Source: Podarcis cretensis (lineage: Eukaryota). Taken from it: a stretch of 64,000 bases of DNA. Shown here piece by piece: positions 5,892-13,273 of this stretch. The DNA lies in the NCBI GenBank assembly GCA_951804945.1, contig OX638161.1:48422001-48486000 (forward strand), in the 5' to 3' direction. A program made the translations under genes and the position numbers. How positions within the stretch are numbered: position 1 is the stretch's first letter; every line of letters starts with the position of its first letter. Under the pieces are notes generated by a model. That model saw only the letters and a program-made list of their open reading frames with translations. It had not been told where the DNA came from and ran no database searches.

Positions 5892-6444
5892 TCTCTCCAA
5901 CTTCATTTCTTCACATTATTGCAGCCCGATTCTCCTTAAAGCATGTTCAGGAATTGCTCACTATCTTCCACAAAGTCAATCAATCAATCTTTATGACGGT
6001 CCAGAGACCCAACAAATCATTACAAATCAATCTTCCACAAAGTGCTTGGTATGCTCTGAGTGAAAGAGGGCTTGCCCACACTACTCTTATTCCTGTGTTT
6101 TCTTTTCTCCCATCATTTTCTCCGGGAAAAGCCATGGTTTAACACTGAATAGGAACAAAAATAAACCAAGTTTTCTGTGGATTGACATTTGTTCTGGTTC
6201 AGCAGAACCAGGGAAAAGCAACTGAACAAAAGAACATCCTGGACCCACAGGACAAAGGGAAGTGTTGATGAGCCCAGAGTTTCCATGTTGCTTGTGCATT
6301 CTAAGAGGGACACATGTCCACAGGTGTAAAGAGCTCTGCAAATGTCAAACAGTGTCGAAGAGACAGATTTTTGCAAAGTCCAGATGTGCCTCTAGTCATA
6401 CATTGTCCAAAGTCTCTGTTGGTGCATTTATCTTGATAGGTATG

Positions 6445-6854
6445 TGTCAGGGAACTGCCATCGGAAGGACAGGTGGTGAGAAGGCTTCAGCAGAATAGGA
6501 GAGCCTCTTCTTCAGGAGAAGAGGGAACCAGTAGGGGGAGTGCGGGAGCTCCAAAGGAAAGGGAGTCGGAGGGGAGGCTCTGGGATACTTCCAGTGAGAA
6601 CAGCGAGGAGGTATCAGAACAGCCCATAAGGACTCCCACCCCCCGCCGGAAGCTGTCACGCAGGGAATCCAGGAGGCGCATGTCTGTGAAACAGCTCTTA
6701 TGTTGGAAACGTTTCCGCAAACGCCCACTGTCAGATTCTACCAGCGACTGAGGGAGCCATGCTCAAGGGCTCTTCTCAAAGCAGGGTTTCACTACACAGA
6801 GTGAGCTCTGAGGGATCCAGCTTTAACGCACAAGCTGCTCATTATCCCACCACA
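6445..6854 (+). repeat. 5' LTR
   Basis: TGTCAGGG...CCACCACA; no differences from 11545-11954 seen by eye. Confidence 0.96.
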
Positions 6855-6899
6855 GCAATCTGACAGTCCCTGAAAGCAGCTTGTGCAAAGAGAGGCATC

Positions 6900-7913
6900 A
6901 TGAGCAACCCAGCCGGAGGCGGAGATGGGGGAGCAGCTGCAGCCGGTCCTAGCCTGGAAGAAAGGTACAGGATGTTGGAGGTACAGTTAGCTCTGCAAAC
7001 GGCGAGGCTGGAGGAGAGGAGGGCTCATGATGCAGAAAAGGGGAAAGCCGCCCAGCTCTCGAGGAAAGTGCCAGGACTGGTGCAGAAGTTTGGGGGTGAT
7101 CCCAGGAATTATCAAGCCTTCAGGACAGAGATGCAATATGCCCTCAATCTGCAGTTTGATGATTTTCCTGATGAGGATTCGAGGGTTGGTTTTGTGATTG
7201 GGCATCTCGAAGGCACAGCCCGAGATTGGGTGAGACCACTAATGGCAGCCAATAATGAAGCCCTAAGGGACACAAGGAAGTTTTTTCGCGCCATGGATCT
7301 GATGTTTTCCAGCGAGATTGAGCAGGGAGTGGCGCGCAGGCAGTTAATGGCGTGTAAACAAGGGAACCGATCTGTCCGTGAGTACTGGACTGAGTTCACC
7401 ATGTTGATCCATAAATTAGGATGGGATTTGTCAGCGGAACCGATACAAATGCTGTTCGAAGAAGGACTATCTTCGGCAGTGAAAGACGAACTTTCCCGGG
7501 GGCCCAGGGCGGAGTCTATGGACCTTCTGACTAAATCAGCGCTGGCCATAGGCTCACGCCAGGAGGCCAGAGCCTTGGAGAAGCGGGAAGGGAAAGGGGA
7601 GCGTTGGAGGGATTTCCGCATTCCAGAGATGCCAGAGCAGCCTTCTCTGCCAGCAGAGCCGATGGAAATCGGAACAGCGCGCGCGCGCGCAATTTCAAAC
7701 CCCAGTGAAGGGAGGAAGAAGGAGGGGAAAGGCGCCAAGAAATGTTTTCTCTGCCAACAGCCAGGTCATTTTGCCAGAGTTTGTCCGCAAAGAAAGGAAT
7801 GGCAAGGAATGGCGGGAGCTGTTGGGGAGGAGGGAGAAGGAGCTAAGGAGCAAGTAAAAGCCAACGCCTGGCTGCCACCGACGGGGCACAGCAGCCAGGC
7901 CAAGGAACAGTAA
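6900..7913 (+). CDS. gag: Gag polyprotein (retrotransposon capsid plus CCHC zinc knuckle)
   Basis: 337-aa ORF with KFGGDP, KQGNRSVREY capsid motif, EPMEIG and CFLCQQPGHFARVC knuckle. Confidence 0.93.
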   Translation: MSNPAGGGDGGAAAAGPSLEERYRMLEVQLALQTARLEERRAHDAEKGKAAQLSRKVPGLVQKFGGDPRNYQAFRTEMQYALNLQFDDFPDEDSRVGFVIGHLEGTARDWVRPLMAANNEALRDTRKFFRAMDLMFSSEIEQGVARRQLMACKQGNRSVREYWTEFTMLIHKLGWDLSAEPIQMLFEEGLSSAVKDELSRGPRAESMDLLTKSALAIGSRQEARALEKREGKGERWRDFRIPEMPEQPSLPAEPMEIGTARARAISNPSEGRKKEGKGAKKCFLCQQPGHFARVCPQRKEWQGMAGAVGEEGEGAKEQVKANAWLPPTGHSSQAKEQ

Positions 7914-10900
7914 ATGTGCCCACGCCAGAACCCCCAAGACCAGCTCTTGTAATAGAGGTATTGCTGGAGCTGGCAAACGGACACCCACTAAAAGTGAAGG
8001 CGCTATTAGACTCAGGCAGCTCCTGCAACTTTATGAGTAAGGAGTTTGCAGCCGCCCATCAGATACAAACCATTCCTTTAAAAAATCCCCTGCAGGTGAC
8101 CACGATTGATGGGAGGGCGCTGTTGGGGGGAGAAGTAGACCAGCAGACGGTCCCCATGACAATGAGGGTGGCAAGACACACGGAACGGATAGCGTTTAAT
8201 ATAGCCACGTTGGGAGGAGCGCCCATCATTTTGGGGATGAGCTGGCTAGCGCTGCATGATCCGCTTGTGGGATGGCATCAGAGAGTGGTTTCCTTTGGGT
8301 CAGCACATTGTATGGGACACTGCACAGAAAAAGGGGGCCAAGCAGGCACTCAGGCCACGTTAGCAAAGATAGAAGCAATGGAACAAGGTAGGGTACCACG
8401 ACAATATGCAGATTTTGCCGACGTCTTCAGCGAAAGGGAAGCAGATAAACTACCCCCGCACAGAGCCTTTGACTGCCAAATCAACTTACTTCCAGGAGCG
8501 CAATTGCCAGTGGGCAAGGTGTATGCAATGTCTGACAGAGAGATGCAGGAGCTAAGGGAGTTTATTGACAAAAACCTCAAGCGTGGGTTCATCAGGGAGT
8601 CACGAGCGGTGGGGGGTAGCCCAGTGTTCTTTGTAGACAAAAAAAACTCGGACAAACCGAGATTAATTGTGGATTTCAGGGCCCTAAACGCAGTGTCCGA
8701 ACCCGTGACCTTCCCTATGCCCAGAATCGATGACATTTTGACCCGGGTGAGAAAAGGGAAGATTTTTACCAAGCTGGACCTGAGGGGGGCGTATAACTTG
8801 ATACGTATGAGAAAGGGAGATGAGTGGAAAACCACTATGTTCACCCCCTTGGGGGCATTTGAGTACTGCGTTATGCCTTTCGGCCTCCAGGCGGGTTCCG
8901 CAGTATTTCAATCATTTATTAATCACGTACTAGGACCATTGCTGTACAAGAACTGCGCTGCGTTCTTGGACGATGTGCTGGTGTACTCAGAGGATGAAGA
9001 GCAGCATGTGCGAGATGTAAGAGAAGTACTGAGCAAACTGCAAGAAAACCAGCTGTGGGTGAAACTGGAGAAGTGTCAGTTTCACGCCAGGGAGGTGGAA
9101 TTCCTTGGGTACCGGTTGTCGGACAAGGGGCTGGCCATGGATCCTAGCAAGGTGCAAGCAGTGCTGGAATGGAGGCCACCGAAAACTAAGAAAGATGTGC
9201 AGAGGTTTTTGGGGTTCGGAAACTTCTATCGGAAGTTCATCAAGAACTTCGCCCATTTAACAGCCCCCATCACGGATTGTCTCAGCAGTAAGAAGAAATT
9301 TGTCTGGACGGAAGAAGCGCAGCGAGCTTTCGAAAGTTTAAAGAGGGCGTTTGCTTCGGAAGAACAACTTTTACACGTGGATCTGCAGCAGCCGATGAGG
9401 GTGGAAACCGACGCGTCTGACAGAGCGGTGGGGGCCGTGCTTCTGCAGCCAGGAGCGAATACGTCGGAATGGAAGCCGTGTGCCTTCTTCTCGAGGAAAT
9501 TGAACAAGTCTGAGAGGAATTATACAGTGTACGACAGAGAATTACTCGCTGTCCACGAAGCGTTCAAGAGATGGAGACACCTGTTGATTGGAGCGCAACA
9601 CAAGGTTCAAGTACGGACAGACCACAAAAATCTAGAATACTGGAGAACAGCCCGAGTGTTGAACCAGAGACAAGTAAGATGGGCGCAAGAGTTCTCCAAG
9701 TTCAATTTTGAGATTCGCTACGTGCCAGGGGCTGAGAATGTCAGGGCGGACGCTCTCTCCAGAAAACCTGAGTACTTGGAGGGGGAAGGAGGGGCGGAAG
9801 AAAGACATATCATCTCAGAGGACCACTGGGTTTGTGGGGCGGCATTGGTGGGGCAAAGAGAACTGGCAGAGGGTATTGAAAACGATGAATATGCCCAAGA
9901 GAAACTTAGGGAACTCAGGGAGACAGGTGAAAACGCAGGGGGGTTTGAGGAAAAGAACGGAAAACTATATTACAAAGGGGCGCTCTACATACCAGGTGGG
10001 GAACTAAGAGGGCGAGTGCTTAAGCAGTTGCATGACAGCCCCACGGCCGGGCACTTCGGGCAGCACAAAACCATGTGGTTGGTTACCAGGGAGTTTTGGT
10101 GGCCCAAGGTGCGGGAGGACGTGCGGGAGTATGTCAGGGGATGCGACAGGTGCCAAAGAGCAAAGGGAGAGAGGTTGGCGCCAGCGGGGTTATTGGAACC
10201 CTTACCCACCCCAGAAAGGCCATGGGAGATGGTATCCATAGACTTCATGACCGATCTACCGAGATCCAAAGGGAAAACCGCGGTCATGGTGGTGGTAGAT
10301 CTACTAACTAAGATGTGCCACTTTATAGCTTGTTCACATGCAGTGACAGCGGAAGAAACCGCAAGGTTGTTTGTGGAGCACATTTTTAGGTTGCATGGCG
10401 CCCCCTTGAGGGTTTTGAGCGACAGAGGAAAACAATTTACTTCTAGGTTCTGGAGGAAACTAATGAGCATGTTGCATGTGGAGGTAAGTTTTTCCACCGC
10501 CAGGCACCCAGAAACAAATGGGCAAGCAGAAAGGGCAAACGGGGTTTTGCAACAATATCTGAGGTGTTATGTAAAGGACAGAGAAACTGATTGGGTGGAC
10601 TGGTTACCTCTGGCAGAATTTGCCTACAACAACGCGGAGAACGCGTCCACAGGGATGAGTCCCTTTTTAGCCAATTATGGGTGTCATCCTCGGGCGTTTC
10701 CAGGAGAGGGCGGGGAAAGGTGGAGTGTACCTGCAGCGGAAAATTTTGTTGAAGAGATGGAAGCGATCCACCGTCAGCTCCAACTCAACTTAGAGAAAGC
10801 CAAAGAAGAATATAAGAAGCAAGCTGACAGAAATAGGAGGGAAGGCGAAACCATAAGGGTGGGTAACCGGGTGTGGCTATCCACCCAAGGACTGCCGTTC

Positions 10901-11851
10901 AAGGGAGGGTGTAAGAAATTGAGACCCAAACGGTTGGGACCCTTTGAGGTCATACAGCAGGTCAACCCAGTAGCATTCAAACTCCGATTGCCCAGTCACA
11001 TGAAATTGCACCCAGTATTTCACAGGTCATTACTGTCGCCCTACAGAGAGGGGTGTGAGTGGGGGGAACGTGAGAGGGAGGTCACCCGAACACCCGTCAT
11101 AGAAGAGAGAGAACGCAACATGGATGTGGCAGGGATCATTGATTCCAGGTGGAAGGGGAATCAGGTGGAATACTTGGTAGAATGGGAGGGGGAGGAAGAG
11201 TCAGAAAACGCATGGGTACCGGCAGAGGAAGTCAAGGACGAGATTTTAATAGAAACGTTTCATCGGCGTTTCCCAAGTAAACCACAACCAGTGGCAAGGT
11301 TTAGGAGGGAACACTTCGGGACTACAGATGAGGAAGGGGAATTTGAAGGGTTCCCAGAGTCGGAAGTGGAGGTGGAAACAGATTCCGACGAAGGAGAGGA
11401 AGAGGGGGAAAGAGGCGGTAGGCCGTGGTTAGAAGTGTTTGAATCCTCGGAGGATGAGGGGAGTTCCTTCCAGGGATTTCCGTCCTCGCCGCCAGTAGGA
11501 GAAGAGGCGGGAGGGGGTGAAGGGGGCCCTGGGGGGGAGGTGGATGTCAGGGAACTGCCATCGGAAGGACAGGTGGTGAGAAGGCTTCAGCAGAATAGGA
11601 GAGCCTCTTCTTCAGGAGAAGAGGGAACCAGTAGGGGGAGTGCGGGAGCTCCAAAGGAAAGGGAGTCGGAGGGGAGGCTCTGGGATACTTCCAGTGAGAA
11701 CAGCGAGGAGGTATCAGAACAGCCCATAAGGACTCCCACCCCCCGCCGGAAGCTGTCACGCAGGGAATCCAGGAGGCGCATGTCTGTGAAACAGCTCTTA
11801 TGTTGGAAACGTTTCCGCAAACGCCCACTGTCAGATTCTACCAGCGACTGA
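7847..11851 (+). CDS. pol: Pol polyprotein (protease, RT, RNase H, integrase, chromodomain, acidic tail) in the -1 frame relative to gag
   Basis: LLDSGS protease, FLDD RT, TDAS RNase H, HHCC/DDE integrase, GPF motif, YLVEWEG chromodomain. The frame is open from 7847 (after TAA 7844-7846) and runs into the 3' LTR. Confidence 0.95.
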   Translation, partial: GASKSQRLAATDGAQQPGQGTVNVPTPEPPRPALVIEVLLELANGHPLKVKALLDSGSSCNFMSKEFAAAHQIQTIPLKNPLQVTTIDGRALLGGEVDQQTVPMTMRVARHTERIAFNIATLGGAPIILGMSWLALHDPLVGWHQRVVSFGSAHCMGHCTEKGGQAGTQATLAKIEAMEQGRVPRQYADFADVFSEREADKLPPHRAFDCQINLLPGAQLPVGKVYAMSDREMQELREFIDKNLKRGFIRESRAVGGSPVFFVDKKNSDKPRLIVDFRALNAVSEPVTFPMPRIDDILTRVRKGKIFTKLDLRGAYNLIRMRKGDEWKTTMFTPLGAFEYCVMPFGLQAGSAVFQSFINHVLGPLLYKNCAAFLDDVLVYSEDEEQHVRDVREVLSKLQENQLWVKLEKCQFHAREVEFLGYRLSDKGLAMDPSKVQAVLEWRPPKTKKDVQRFLGFGNFYRKFIKNFAHLTAPITDCLSSKKKFVWTEEAQRAFESLKRAFASEEQLLHVDLQQPMRVETDASDRAVGAVLLQPGANTSEWKPCAFFSRKLNKSERNYTVYDRELLAVHEAFKRWRHLLIGAQHKVQVRTDHKNLEYWRTARVLNQRQVRWAQEFSKFNFEIRYVPGAENVRADALSRKPEYLEGEGGAEERHIISEDHWVCGAALVGQRELAEGIENDEYAQEKLRELRETGENAGGFEEKNGKLYYKGALYIPGGELRGRVLKQLHDSPTAGHFGQHKTMWLVTREFWWPKVREDVREYVRGCDRCQRAKGERLAPAGLLEPLPTPERPWEMVSIDFMTDLPRSKGKTAVMVVVDLLTKMCHFIACSHAVTAEETARLFVEHIFRLHGAPLRVLSDRGKQFTSRFWRKLMSMLHVEVSFSTARHPETNGQAERANGVLQQYLRCYVKDRETDWVDWLPLAEFAYNNAENASTGMSPFLANYGCHPRAFPGEGGERWSVPAAENFVEEMEAIHRQLQLNLEKAKEEYKKQADRNRREGETIRVGNRVWLSTQGLPFKGGCKKLRPKRLGPFEVIQQVNPVAFKLRLPSHMKLHPVFHRSLLSPYREGCEWGEREREVTRTPVIEERERNMDVAGIIDSRWKGNQVEYLVEWEGEEESENAWVPAEEVKDEILIETFHRRFPSKPQPVARFRREHFGTTDEEGEFEGFPESEVEVETDSDEGEEEGERGGRPWLEVFESSEDEGSSFQGFPSSPPVGEEAGGGEGGPGGEVDVRELPSEGQVVRRLQQNRRASSSGEEGTSRGSAGAPKERESEGRLWDTSSENSEEVSEQPIRTPTPRRKLSRRESRRRMSVKQLLCWKRFRKRPLSDSTSD

Positions 11852-11954
11852 GGGAGCCATGCTCAAGGGCTCTTCTCAAAGCAGGGTTTCACTACACAGA
11901 GTGAGCTCTGAGGGATCCAGCTTTAACGCACAAGCTGCTCATTATCCCACCACA
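11545..11954 (+). repeat. 3' LTR
   Basis: Direct repeat of 6445-6854, preceded by the purine-rich tract GGGGGGGAGGTGGA. Confidence 0.96.
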
Positions 11955-11956
11955 GT

Positions 11957-11964
11957 ATGCAAAT
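11957..11964 (+). promoter_or_regulatory. Ig octamer ATGCAAAT of the VH4 promoter, overlapping the retrotransposon TSD
   Basis: Canonical octamer about 105 nt upstream of the leader ATG at 12068, the same position as in the paralogous VH3 and VH5 promoters. Confidence 0.9.
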
Positions 11965-12067: not shown

Positions 12068-12506
12068 ATGATAGTTTTGCTTCAACTAGTTTTCCTTTCG
12101 GTAGCTTTTGGAGGTAAATCCATCCTTTCAGTTAAAGATGGTTGGGGTACTCTGGGAGTTAATAACATGCAGCAGAATTCTAAAAATGCCCTTCTTTCTA
12201 GGTGTCCAATCAGAGGTCCAGCTGGTGGAGTCTGGAGGAGATGTGAAAAAGCCTGGAGACTCCCTCCACCTCTCCTGTCGAGCCTCTGGATTCAACTTTG
12301 GGGACTCTGGCATGCACTGGATGAGACAGGCTCCTGGGAAGGGCCTGGAATGGGTGGCCTACATAAACCACAATTCAGCTACAATTTACTACTTGGATAA
12401 AGTGAAGGGAATATTCACCATCTCCAGGGACAATTCCAACAGCCTCCTCTATCTGCAAATGAACAGCCTTAAACCCGAGGACACGGCTGTGTATTACTGT
12501 GCAAGA
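12068..12506 (+). CDS. IGHV: IGHV segment VH4 (clan III-like); coding intact, promoter split by the LTR element
   Basis: Leader 12068-12113, open V exon 12202-12506 (EVQLVESGG...YYCAR). RSS: CACAGTC 12507-12513, 23 nt, ACAAAAACC 12537-12545. Confidence 0.92.
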
Positions 12507-13273
12507 CACAGTCAGAGGAAGTGAATCTGAAGTCAGACAAAAACCCTCCTTTAATCAAAACAGAGAAGTTGCATTCCCTCCAACATTCCACATGAAAATA
12601 GGGACATTCTATTAGCTGCCAGAGACCAAAGAAAGCTGTTAAAATAATTTAGACAGATTGTCTTCCCATTCAAACGGAGACAGCCAGCTAGTCATGCAGC
12701 TGTACACCTGGAGCTTTCCCTAGGCAAACTATAATCATTTATTAGTGTTATTATTATGAATTTATCAGTTCCTTAATCTTGCCCAGGGCAATCCAATGAA
12801 ACAACCAAAGAAACAATAAACCCCACATAGATATGTTAAAACCAAGAGGAAAGAAGAATACATTAAAAACAATTCACCCACTTGTAAGAGACCACAAATA
12901 GTTATAGGCCAAAGGCCTGGTTATAGAGGAAAGTTTTTGCTTGGTGCCTACAGATGTATAATGATGGTTCCAGGCAATCCTCACTGGGGAGAGCATTCCA
13001 CAAACAGGGATACATTTCAGAAATGGCTCCTTCTCATTTTGACACCCTCCAGACCTCTTGTGGAGGAGGACCATAAAAAACGTCCTCAAATTATGATTTC
13101 AGGTTTTTAAAATGTGATTCAGTGCTCTTTTTCATTTACTCCAAGGGCCATCAAACATTCTATACTGGGCACTACACACACACACCACAACCAGCTACAT
13201 GCCACAACTTGATCTATTGGCTACACTAAAGAGCATCCTTGAAAACAAAATTTCCATTGAGGAGAGAGGATAC

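Follow-up and report, generated by a model that had tools for sequence, protein, structure and literature searches.

Conserved tandem FxGF motifs on the integrase tail of a lizard chromovirus are a candidate mimic of host IBD-binding motifs

A young Gypsy chromovirus of Podarcis lizards carries on its integrase tail two copies of a short motif that resembles cellular IBM/TIM motifs: a hydrophobic segment ending in F, an acidic Ser/Thr-bearing linker, and FxGF. From their sequence and conservation, we consider it somewhat probable that these motifs are an IBM/TIM mimic that binds the IBD of LEDGF/HRP2 and that has replaced direct methyl-lysine reading. The element lies in a 64,000-nt stretch of the Podarcis cretensis genome (contig OX638161.1, positions 48,422,001 to 48,486,000), hereafter the window, in which all element coordinates are counted; its features lie on the plus strand, and the target-site duplications carry no strand.

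The preliminary description of this DNA reported two repeats of a hydrophobic segment ending in F, an 8–9-aa acidic Ser/Thr linker, and FxGF. Both repeats are exact: motif 1 runs from FRREHF to FEGF (11300–11353) with an 8-aa linker, and motif 2 runs from WLEVF to FQGF (11426–11479) with a Ser-rich 9-aa linker; each linker contains 4 acidic residues, and the CK2-type S/T-x-x-D/E sites claimed for each linker were located at four positions (T1159 and T1160; S1200 and S1201). The motifs are separated by an acidic spacer (11354–11425) that is variable in both length and sequence, and Pol has just one further FxGF, in its RT region. When the 74-aa insert was shuffled 200,000 times, two full motifs came up once and at least two FxGF 426 times; shuffling the 186-aa tail gave 1 and 104 such cases, respectively. 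As the pattern was defined after the sequence had been seen, conservation is a stronger test than these shuffles. In the predicted structure, the chain after the chromodomain has no secondary structure, a pLDDT of about 46–59 and a net charge of −19, and the motifs are thus predicted to sit in a disordered region.

The element itself is a complete, intact and recently active Gypsy chromovirus. It has all the parts of the Ty3/Gypsy chromovirus plan: LTRs, a target-site duplication, gag, the order PR-RT-RH-IN, and a C-terminal chromodomain. The left target-site duplication, GTATG (6440–6444), precedes a 5′ LTR of 410 bp with TG...CA ends (6445–6854), identical in sequence to the 3′ LTR (11545–11954). 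The primer-binding site (6857–6867) is complementary over 11 nt to the LTR at 6727–6737, and priming is presumably of the Tf1/sushi type, by self-priming with no tRNA primer. The gag gene (6900–7913), with capsid and a CCHC zinc knuckle, is followed in the −1 frame by a pol ORF of 1334 aa (7847–11851), which encodes protease, RT, RNase H, integrase, SH3 and chromodomain; the integrase zinc-binding and core domains occupy 10001–10510 (aa 719–888), a Tf2-1-like SH3 domain occupies 10862–11047 (aa 1006–1067), and the chromodomain, with an HP1/CBX-like fold, occupies 11117–11278. The pol ORF then crosses the purine-rich tract upstream of the 3′ LTR (11520–11544) and enters the LTR by ~300 bp (about 100 codons; 11545–11851), so that the first ~300 bp of the LTR encode the end of Pol, which is basic and NLS-like (net +11 across aa 1290–1334). 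In family B, which is free of the motif, Pol likewise reads into the LTR and has an Arg-rich end.

The right target-site duplication (11955–11959) overlaps an octamer (11957–11964) that precedes an IGHV segment. The element sits inside an IGHV array (11955–11964 and 12068–12544 of the window), and the octamer of the VH segment is intact on its right side; GTATG also stands directly 3′ of the 3′ LTR in 3/40 young copies. The family is young: all 40 scored matches, out of 567 candidates in the genome, are near-identical. Among sequencing runs, none identified as RNA was listed with the element; contigs from two runs that may be RNA, by a guess alone, span most of it and were not counted as expression, and four other runs cover the region.

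The host genome has motifs of the same architecture. Its zf-4CXXC_R1 genes, which we take to be CDCA7L and CDCA7, carry them upstream: the CDCA7L-like gene has LADIF-8aa-FLGF and LREIF-10aa-FEGF, and the CDCA7-like gene (L182:8300-8400, minus strand) has one IBM-like motif, IAKIF-8aa-FCGF. The corresponding stretches are LQEIF-9aa-FIGF in element family C and LQEVF-8aa-FEGF in family D. The preliminary description had recognized an IBM/TIM architecture, and that assignment is supported by this equality with the host's own motifs. The genome also contains LEDGF- and HRP2-like IBD exons; the LEDGF-like one was confirmed as PSIP1, and the second set is presumably HRP2. A comparison of codons by eye gave no clear signal that the element captured its motifs from the host CDCA7L/CDCA7 transcript.

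According to the accessible part of PMC9987994, a TIM consists of an obligate helix, an acidic linker of 8–16 aa that CK2 often phosphorylates and, optionally, FxGF; the helix and the acidic linker are common to all TIMs, many other TIMs lack FxGF, and FxGF has a unique role for LEDGF and HRP2. In the element, the Ser/Thr-bearing acidic linker falls within 8–16 aa and both F of FxGF are conserved, apart from the first F of motif 1 in P0001–P0003, where L or M replaces it in three Podarcis muralis subfamilies. Of the helix anchors (F/V/L/I), the terminal F is invariant and the remaining anchors vary; in motif 2 of family E, Gly precedes the F of the hydrophobic segment. The structure model has no helix at the motifs, but this is a low-confidence part of the model (pLDDT about 46–59). 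The preliminary description had listed LEDGF/p75, HRP2, TFIIS, ELOA and MED26 as partners; LEDGF and HRP2 stand, and the wider list is narrowed to them as the likely partners, given the unique role of FxGF there (PMC9987994, accessible part). Complex prediction for the Podarcis LEDGF IBD (P0063, aa 400–490) with a 36-aa motif-2 peptide scored 0.17 (mark 0.34), in a run without alignments or folded controls and with a tool untried on peptides, and therefore weighs on neither side.

The sample for conservation analysis comprised 120 parsed loci, which gave 91 unique copies and 17 clusters at 90% nucleotide identity; it favours intact copies, because most loci came from searches with a motif-containing query, and families C, D and E were first met through a plain Pfam chromodomain search. 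The motif is present in 15 clusters (78 copies) and absent in 2 (14 copies); of the 78 copies in the motif clusters, none is without an FxGF and 68 contain two. Counted by cluster, the key columns of motif 1 are F 15/15, F 15/15, G 15/15 and F 14/15, and those of motif 2 are W 14/14, F 12/13, F 13/14, G 14/14 and F 13/13, where the single miss in the 13/14 column comes from a family with one motif that was misaligned. Several residues occur at the x of FxGF, and each key F is encoded by both Phe codons among the copies. Parsimony on a tree of the 78 copies (15 subfamilies), with codons that occur once removed, assigned 0 amino-acid-changing and 28 synonymous steps to the eight key F/G columns; amino-acid steps per column were 3.0 for the x of FxGF, 2.3–2.9 for the linkers, 4.2 for the spacer and 2.4 for the chromodomain, and none of 200,000 random draws of eight columns from the 77 tail columns was equally low. 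Deviants found in single copies are FVGY, LKGF, FLDF, FVCF and FVRL, together with FEEF in P0183. This substitution pattern indicates that the motifs are kept by purifying selection while the spacer drifts, and the conservation of FxGF and of the upstream F against a variable acidic background, which the preliminary description had named as its test, holds across lizard families.

The combination of F, an 8–9-aa linker and FxGF is retained at 52–63% identity around the integrase, down to 52–55%, in families C, D and E of the same genome, in Podarcis proteins, and in the more distant P0246 and P0329, with one or two motifs retained per divergent family. Family C has the first motif only, and P0246 (an ENA record) has the second only; therefore, either motif copy can stand alone. 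A profile search of 1.84 billion representatives returned 7,729 matches, of which the best 150 were mostly multi-chromodomain proteins; among the 149 new proteins in these best 150, a scan flagged 4 with the acidic tail motif and a fifth, P0329, was recognized by eye; 4 of the 5 are from Podarcis muralis. P0329 and P0342, which belong to a distant family of Podarcis muralis, have F, 8 aa and FQGF with a Ser/Thr/Pro-rich, non-acidic linker that would be charged only if phosphorylated; the central chromodomain W is lost in them as well.

Every named carrier is from Podarcis. The motif is absent from the fish elements P0005 and P0046, from the amphisbaenian P0293 and from fungal-like elements, and carriers among fish or amphibian chromoviruses, where the preliminary description had also suggested looking, were not found in the protein collections searched; because these collections contain few reptile retroelement proteins, absence outside Lacertidae is weakly tested by them. 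A metagenome scan gave 20 loci, 9 of which were parsed, with the motif in 0/9; the ESM Atlas returned chromodomain clusters only, at ≤0.82, plus one unnamed cluster at 0.75; and a PDB sequence search with the motif stretch gave 0 matches.

A quick tree with 28 rows places all 14 rows that carry the motif on one side of a branch with an SH-aLRT support of 88, next to motif-less lizard families; an earlier tree of 48 rows did not settle the fork between motif-bearing and motif-less lizard families. At that support in the quick tree, the motif-bearing elements would be one clade with a single origin. The nearest motif-less relatives (L129:1500-1800 and L134:1500-1800) have an intact chromodomain cage and an acidic insert with a W-R-E-E word and no FxGF; this insert is possibly a precursor state.

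Carriers of the motif also differ from motif-less elements in the chromodomain. Alignment with HP1 places M, W and E of the element at the positions of HP1 Y, W and Y, with the fold kept in the model: the Y-W-Y cage of group I is missing, and the state is group II-like, with M and E in place of the aromatics at cage positions 1 and 3 and W retained. Neither flanking aromatic is present in any of the 84 motif-positive rows among 121 pattern rows of the genome, whereas both are present in 30 motif-less rows and only one in a single further row; the other 6 rows comprise four spurious hits of the pattern plus two motif-family copies that have decayed. The database proteins (n = 42) divide similarly: both aromatics occur in 33/34 motif-less and 0/8 motif-positive proteins, and 7/8 motif-positive proteins have none. 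The association of motif gain with cage loss is suggestive rather than statistical, because a single evolutionary event underlies it, on a branch with a support of 88 in the quick tree. Group II chromodomains are defined by this aromatic loss and, as of 2013, had been detected only in plants (PMC3605345, accessible part). Judged from these alignments, the vertebrate clade apparently lost its cage while gaining FxGF, and did so on its own; this does not mean that it descends from plant group II.

We compared 10-kb 3′ flanks in three sets of 40: young motif-positive copies, copies of family B, which lacks the motif, and random places. From each flank at most three candidate exons were scanned with Pfam (in total 57, 61 and 54, respectively), and one coiled-coil match and one retroviral integrase match were excluded from the gene count. 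Host-gene exons confirmed by Pfam occurred in 7/40 motif-positive, 4/40 family-B and 9/40 random flanks (motif-positive vs. random: Fisher p 0.78, odds ratio 0.73, 95% range 0.24–2.2), which disfavours more than an about twofold excess in odds for genes among surviving copies. CpG-island-like windows occurred in 12/40, 17/40 and 18/40 flanks in the same order, flank GC was 0.427, 0.445 and 0.437, and the crude exon scorer alone found the groups alike. The enrichment for promoters or exons that gene-directed tethering might have left is not seen in the 40 flanks, and these counts, a low-power, post-selection proxy without annotation, give no hint of targeting to promoters or, as in HIV, to gene bodies among surviving copies. 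Genes are antisense to the motif-positive element in 6/7 cases (p 0.125). A strand skew in the flanks of family A (27 negative vs. 13 positive, p 0.04, one of several tests) is only a hint. Flank repeat content is 37% and 40% in both retroelement families and 29% at random places (L190-L269 vs. L270-L309).

We propose that the tail motifs mimic host IBD-binding motifs and attach the integrase to LEDGF/p75 or HRP2 through the IBD of these proteins: the final F of the hydrophobic segment would enter the first IBD pocket; phosphorylation by CK2 would strengthen the contact of the acidic linker with a basic patch; FxGF would enter the second pocket; and the tandem copies would add avidity. The PWWP of LEDGF/HRP2 could then keep the integration complex on H3K36-methylated chromatin, replacing direct methyl-lysine reading, and what the element gains may be retention on chromatin and efficiency, not a sharp gene preference. 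The H3K36me2 domains read by LEDGF/HRP2 are broad and could also yield a near-random pattern. The flanks, which look random relative to genes, likewise suit a reading in which LEDGF/HRP2 is bound for something other than site choice or holding, such as integrase stabilisation, import or a decoy function. That reading shares the sequence evidence of a tether, and an FxGF-dependent partner is described as stabilising JIL-1 (10.1101/624023, accessible part); however, the methyl-lysine cage was lost together with the gain of the motifs, which points to a role in reading chromatin, and germline selection removes genic insertions, with 6/7 confirmed genes antisense, and we regard it as rather unlikely. 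It is less likely still that the motifs bind another TND protein (IWS1, TFIIS, ELOA, MED26 or PNUTS) and thereby link the integrase to the Pol II machinery: all TIMs share the helix and the acidic linker, and the copy in the window sits on a VH promoter octamer, but FxGF, the most conserved part here, has a role unique to LEDGF/HRP2 and is lacking in many other TIMs (PMC9987994, accessible part), and the flanks show no CpG-island enrichment.

The likeness to IBMs could also be a convergent form, with the motifs binding a non-TND partner or folding back within the element's protein, on its chromodomain or integrase. Spaced aromatics in an acidic stretch are a common design of interaction sites, motif 1 follows immediately on the last helix of the chromodomain, and an extra invariant W stands ahead of motif 2; yet the F-linker-FxGF grammar, with its free x and 8–9-aa spacing, occurs twice and equals the host motifs, so that we give this explanation only a small chance. 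Neutral filler, or a constraint at the nucleic-acid level beside the polypurine tract, seems very improbable: the stretch is purine-rich and lies just upstream of that tract, but the key columns have 28 synonymous and 0 amino-acid changes among shared states, a count by which this explanation is largely refuted, and motif-less relatives are entirely without the insert.

Integrase-tail motifs that bind host readers (MLV-BET) and LEDGF as a lentiviral tether are already known. In the titles and abstracts of the openly accessible literature searched, we found no FxGF/IBM motif for any LTR retrotransposon; the publications found on FxGF plus LEDGF concern cellular proteins, judged by title and abstract, the accessible part of PMC8149907 adds nothing further on such a motif in LTR elements, and the accessible part of PMC9987994 is free of the stem transpos- and in its viral-mimicry section treats lentiviral integrases only. 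If our reading is true, unrelated interfaces have on at least two occasions made LEDGF/HRP2 a tether for integration, and the element would be the first example in the literature searched of TIM mimicry by a mobile element with the full linear motif and would provide a group II-like chromodomain from a vertebrate. The fuller proposition is that this lineage swapped its own methyl-lysine cage for a mimic of the host FxGF motif, reaching HIV's tether via another interface and making its integrase the first of a mobile element on the cellular IBM surface; on the sequences in hand we rate it a real possibility, a little short of an even chance. One genome here holds two lineages, one with the cage and without the motif and one with the motif and without the cage, which constitute a natural test of a switch of targeting device; the youth and abundance of the family (567 candidates) lead us to expect polymorphic insertions that can be mapped.

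Compared with group I and group II chromoviruses, the element has the same full chromovirus anatomy, with cage positions 1 and 3 group II-like; group II was restricted to plants in the 2013 paper (PMC3605345, accessible part), whereas the present clade is vertebrate and carries FxGF motifs. Lentiviral integrase co-opts the H3K36me2/3 readers LEDGF/p75 or HRP2 as tethers, and we propose the same for the element; lentiviruses integrate strongly into active genes, whereas no such bias is seen in the 40 flanks of the element. Lentiviral integrase engages LEDGF by a folded surface, not by a linear FxGF motif, and the tail motifs of Ty5 (Sir4) and Ty1 (AC40) are similar in logic to those described here. 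In MLV integrase, a short conserved motif in the flexible C-terminal tail binds the ET domain of BET proteins (PMC5053271, accessible part): the tail-motif logic is alike, whereas the motif, the host domain and the target (enhancers and start sites for MLV) differ.

Pogo-type transposases are represented in the genome by 119 located matches, and at least nine clustered pogo-type DDE_1 ORFs of 530–750 aa (G000:C2:117.9-119.3 Mb) are perhaps a domesticated gene array; the terms IBM, LEDGF and integrase have 0 occurrences in the accessible main text of the pogo paper (PMC7386202). PogZ, a gene domesticated from a DNA transposase, does not belong to the LTR elements. The element shares with the cellular IBM/TIM motifs of JPO2/CDCA7L, PogZ, MLL1 and IWS1, and of fly JIL-1, the F-ended segment, the acidic linker with CK2 sites, and FxGF, and it has a tandem pair as does the CDCA7L-like gene; structures of LEDGF-IBM fusions have been solved (6emo, 6emp, 6emq, 6emr and 5yi9), whereas the candidate motif described here is carried by a multiplying retroelement.
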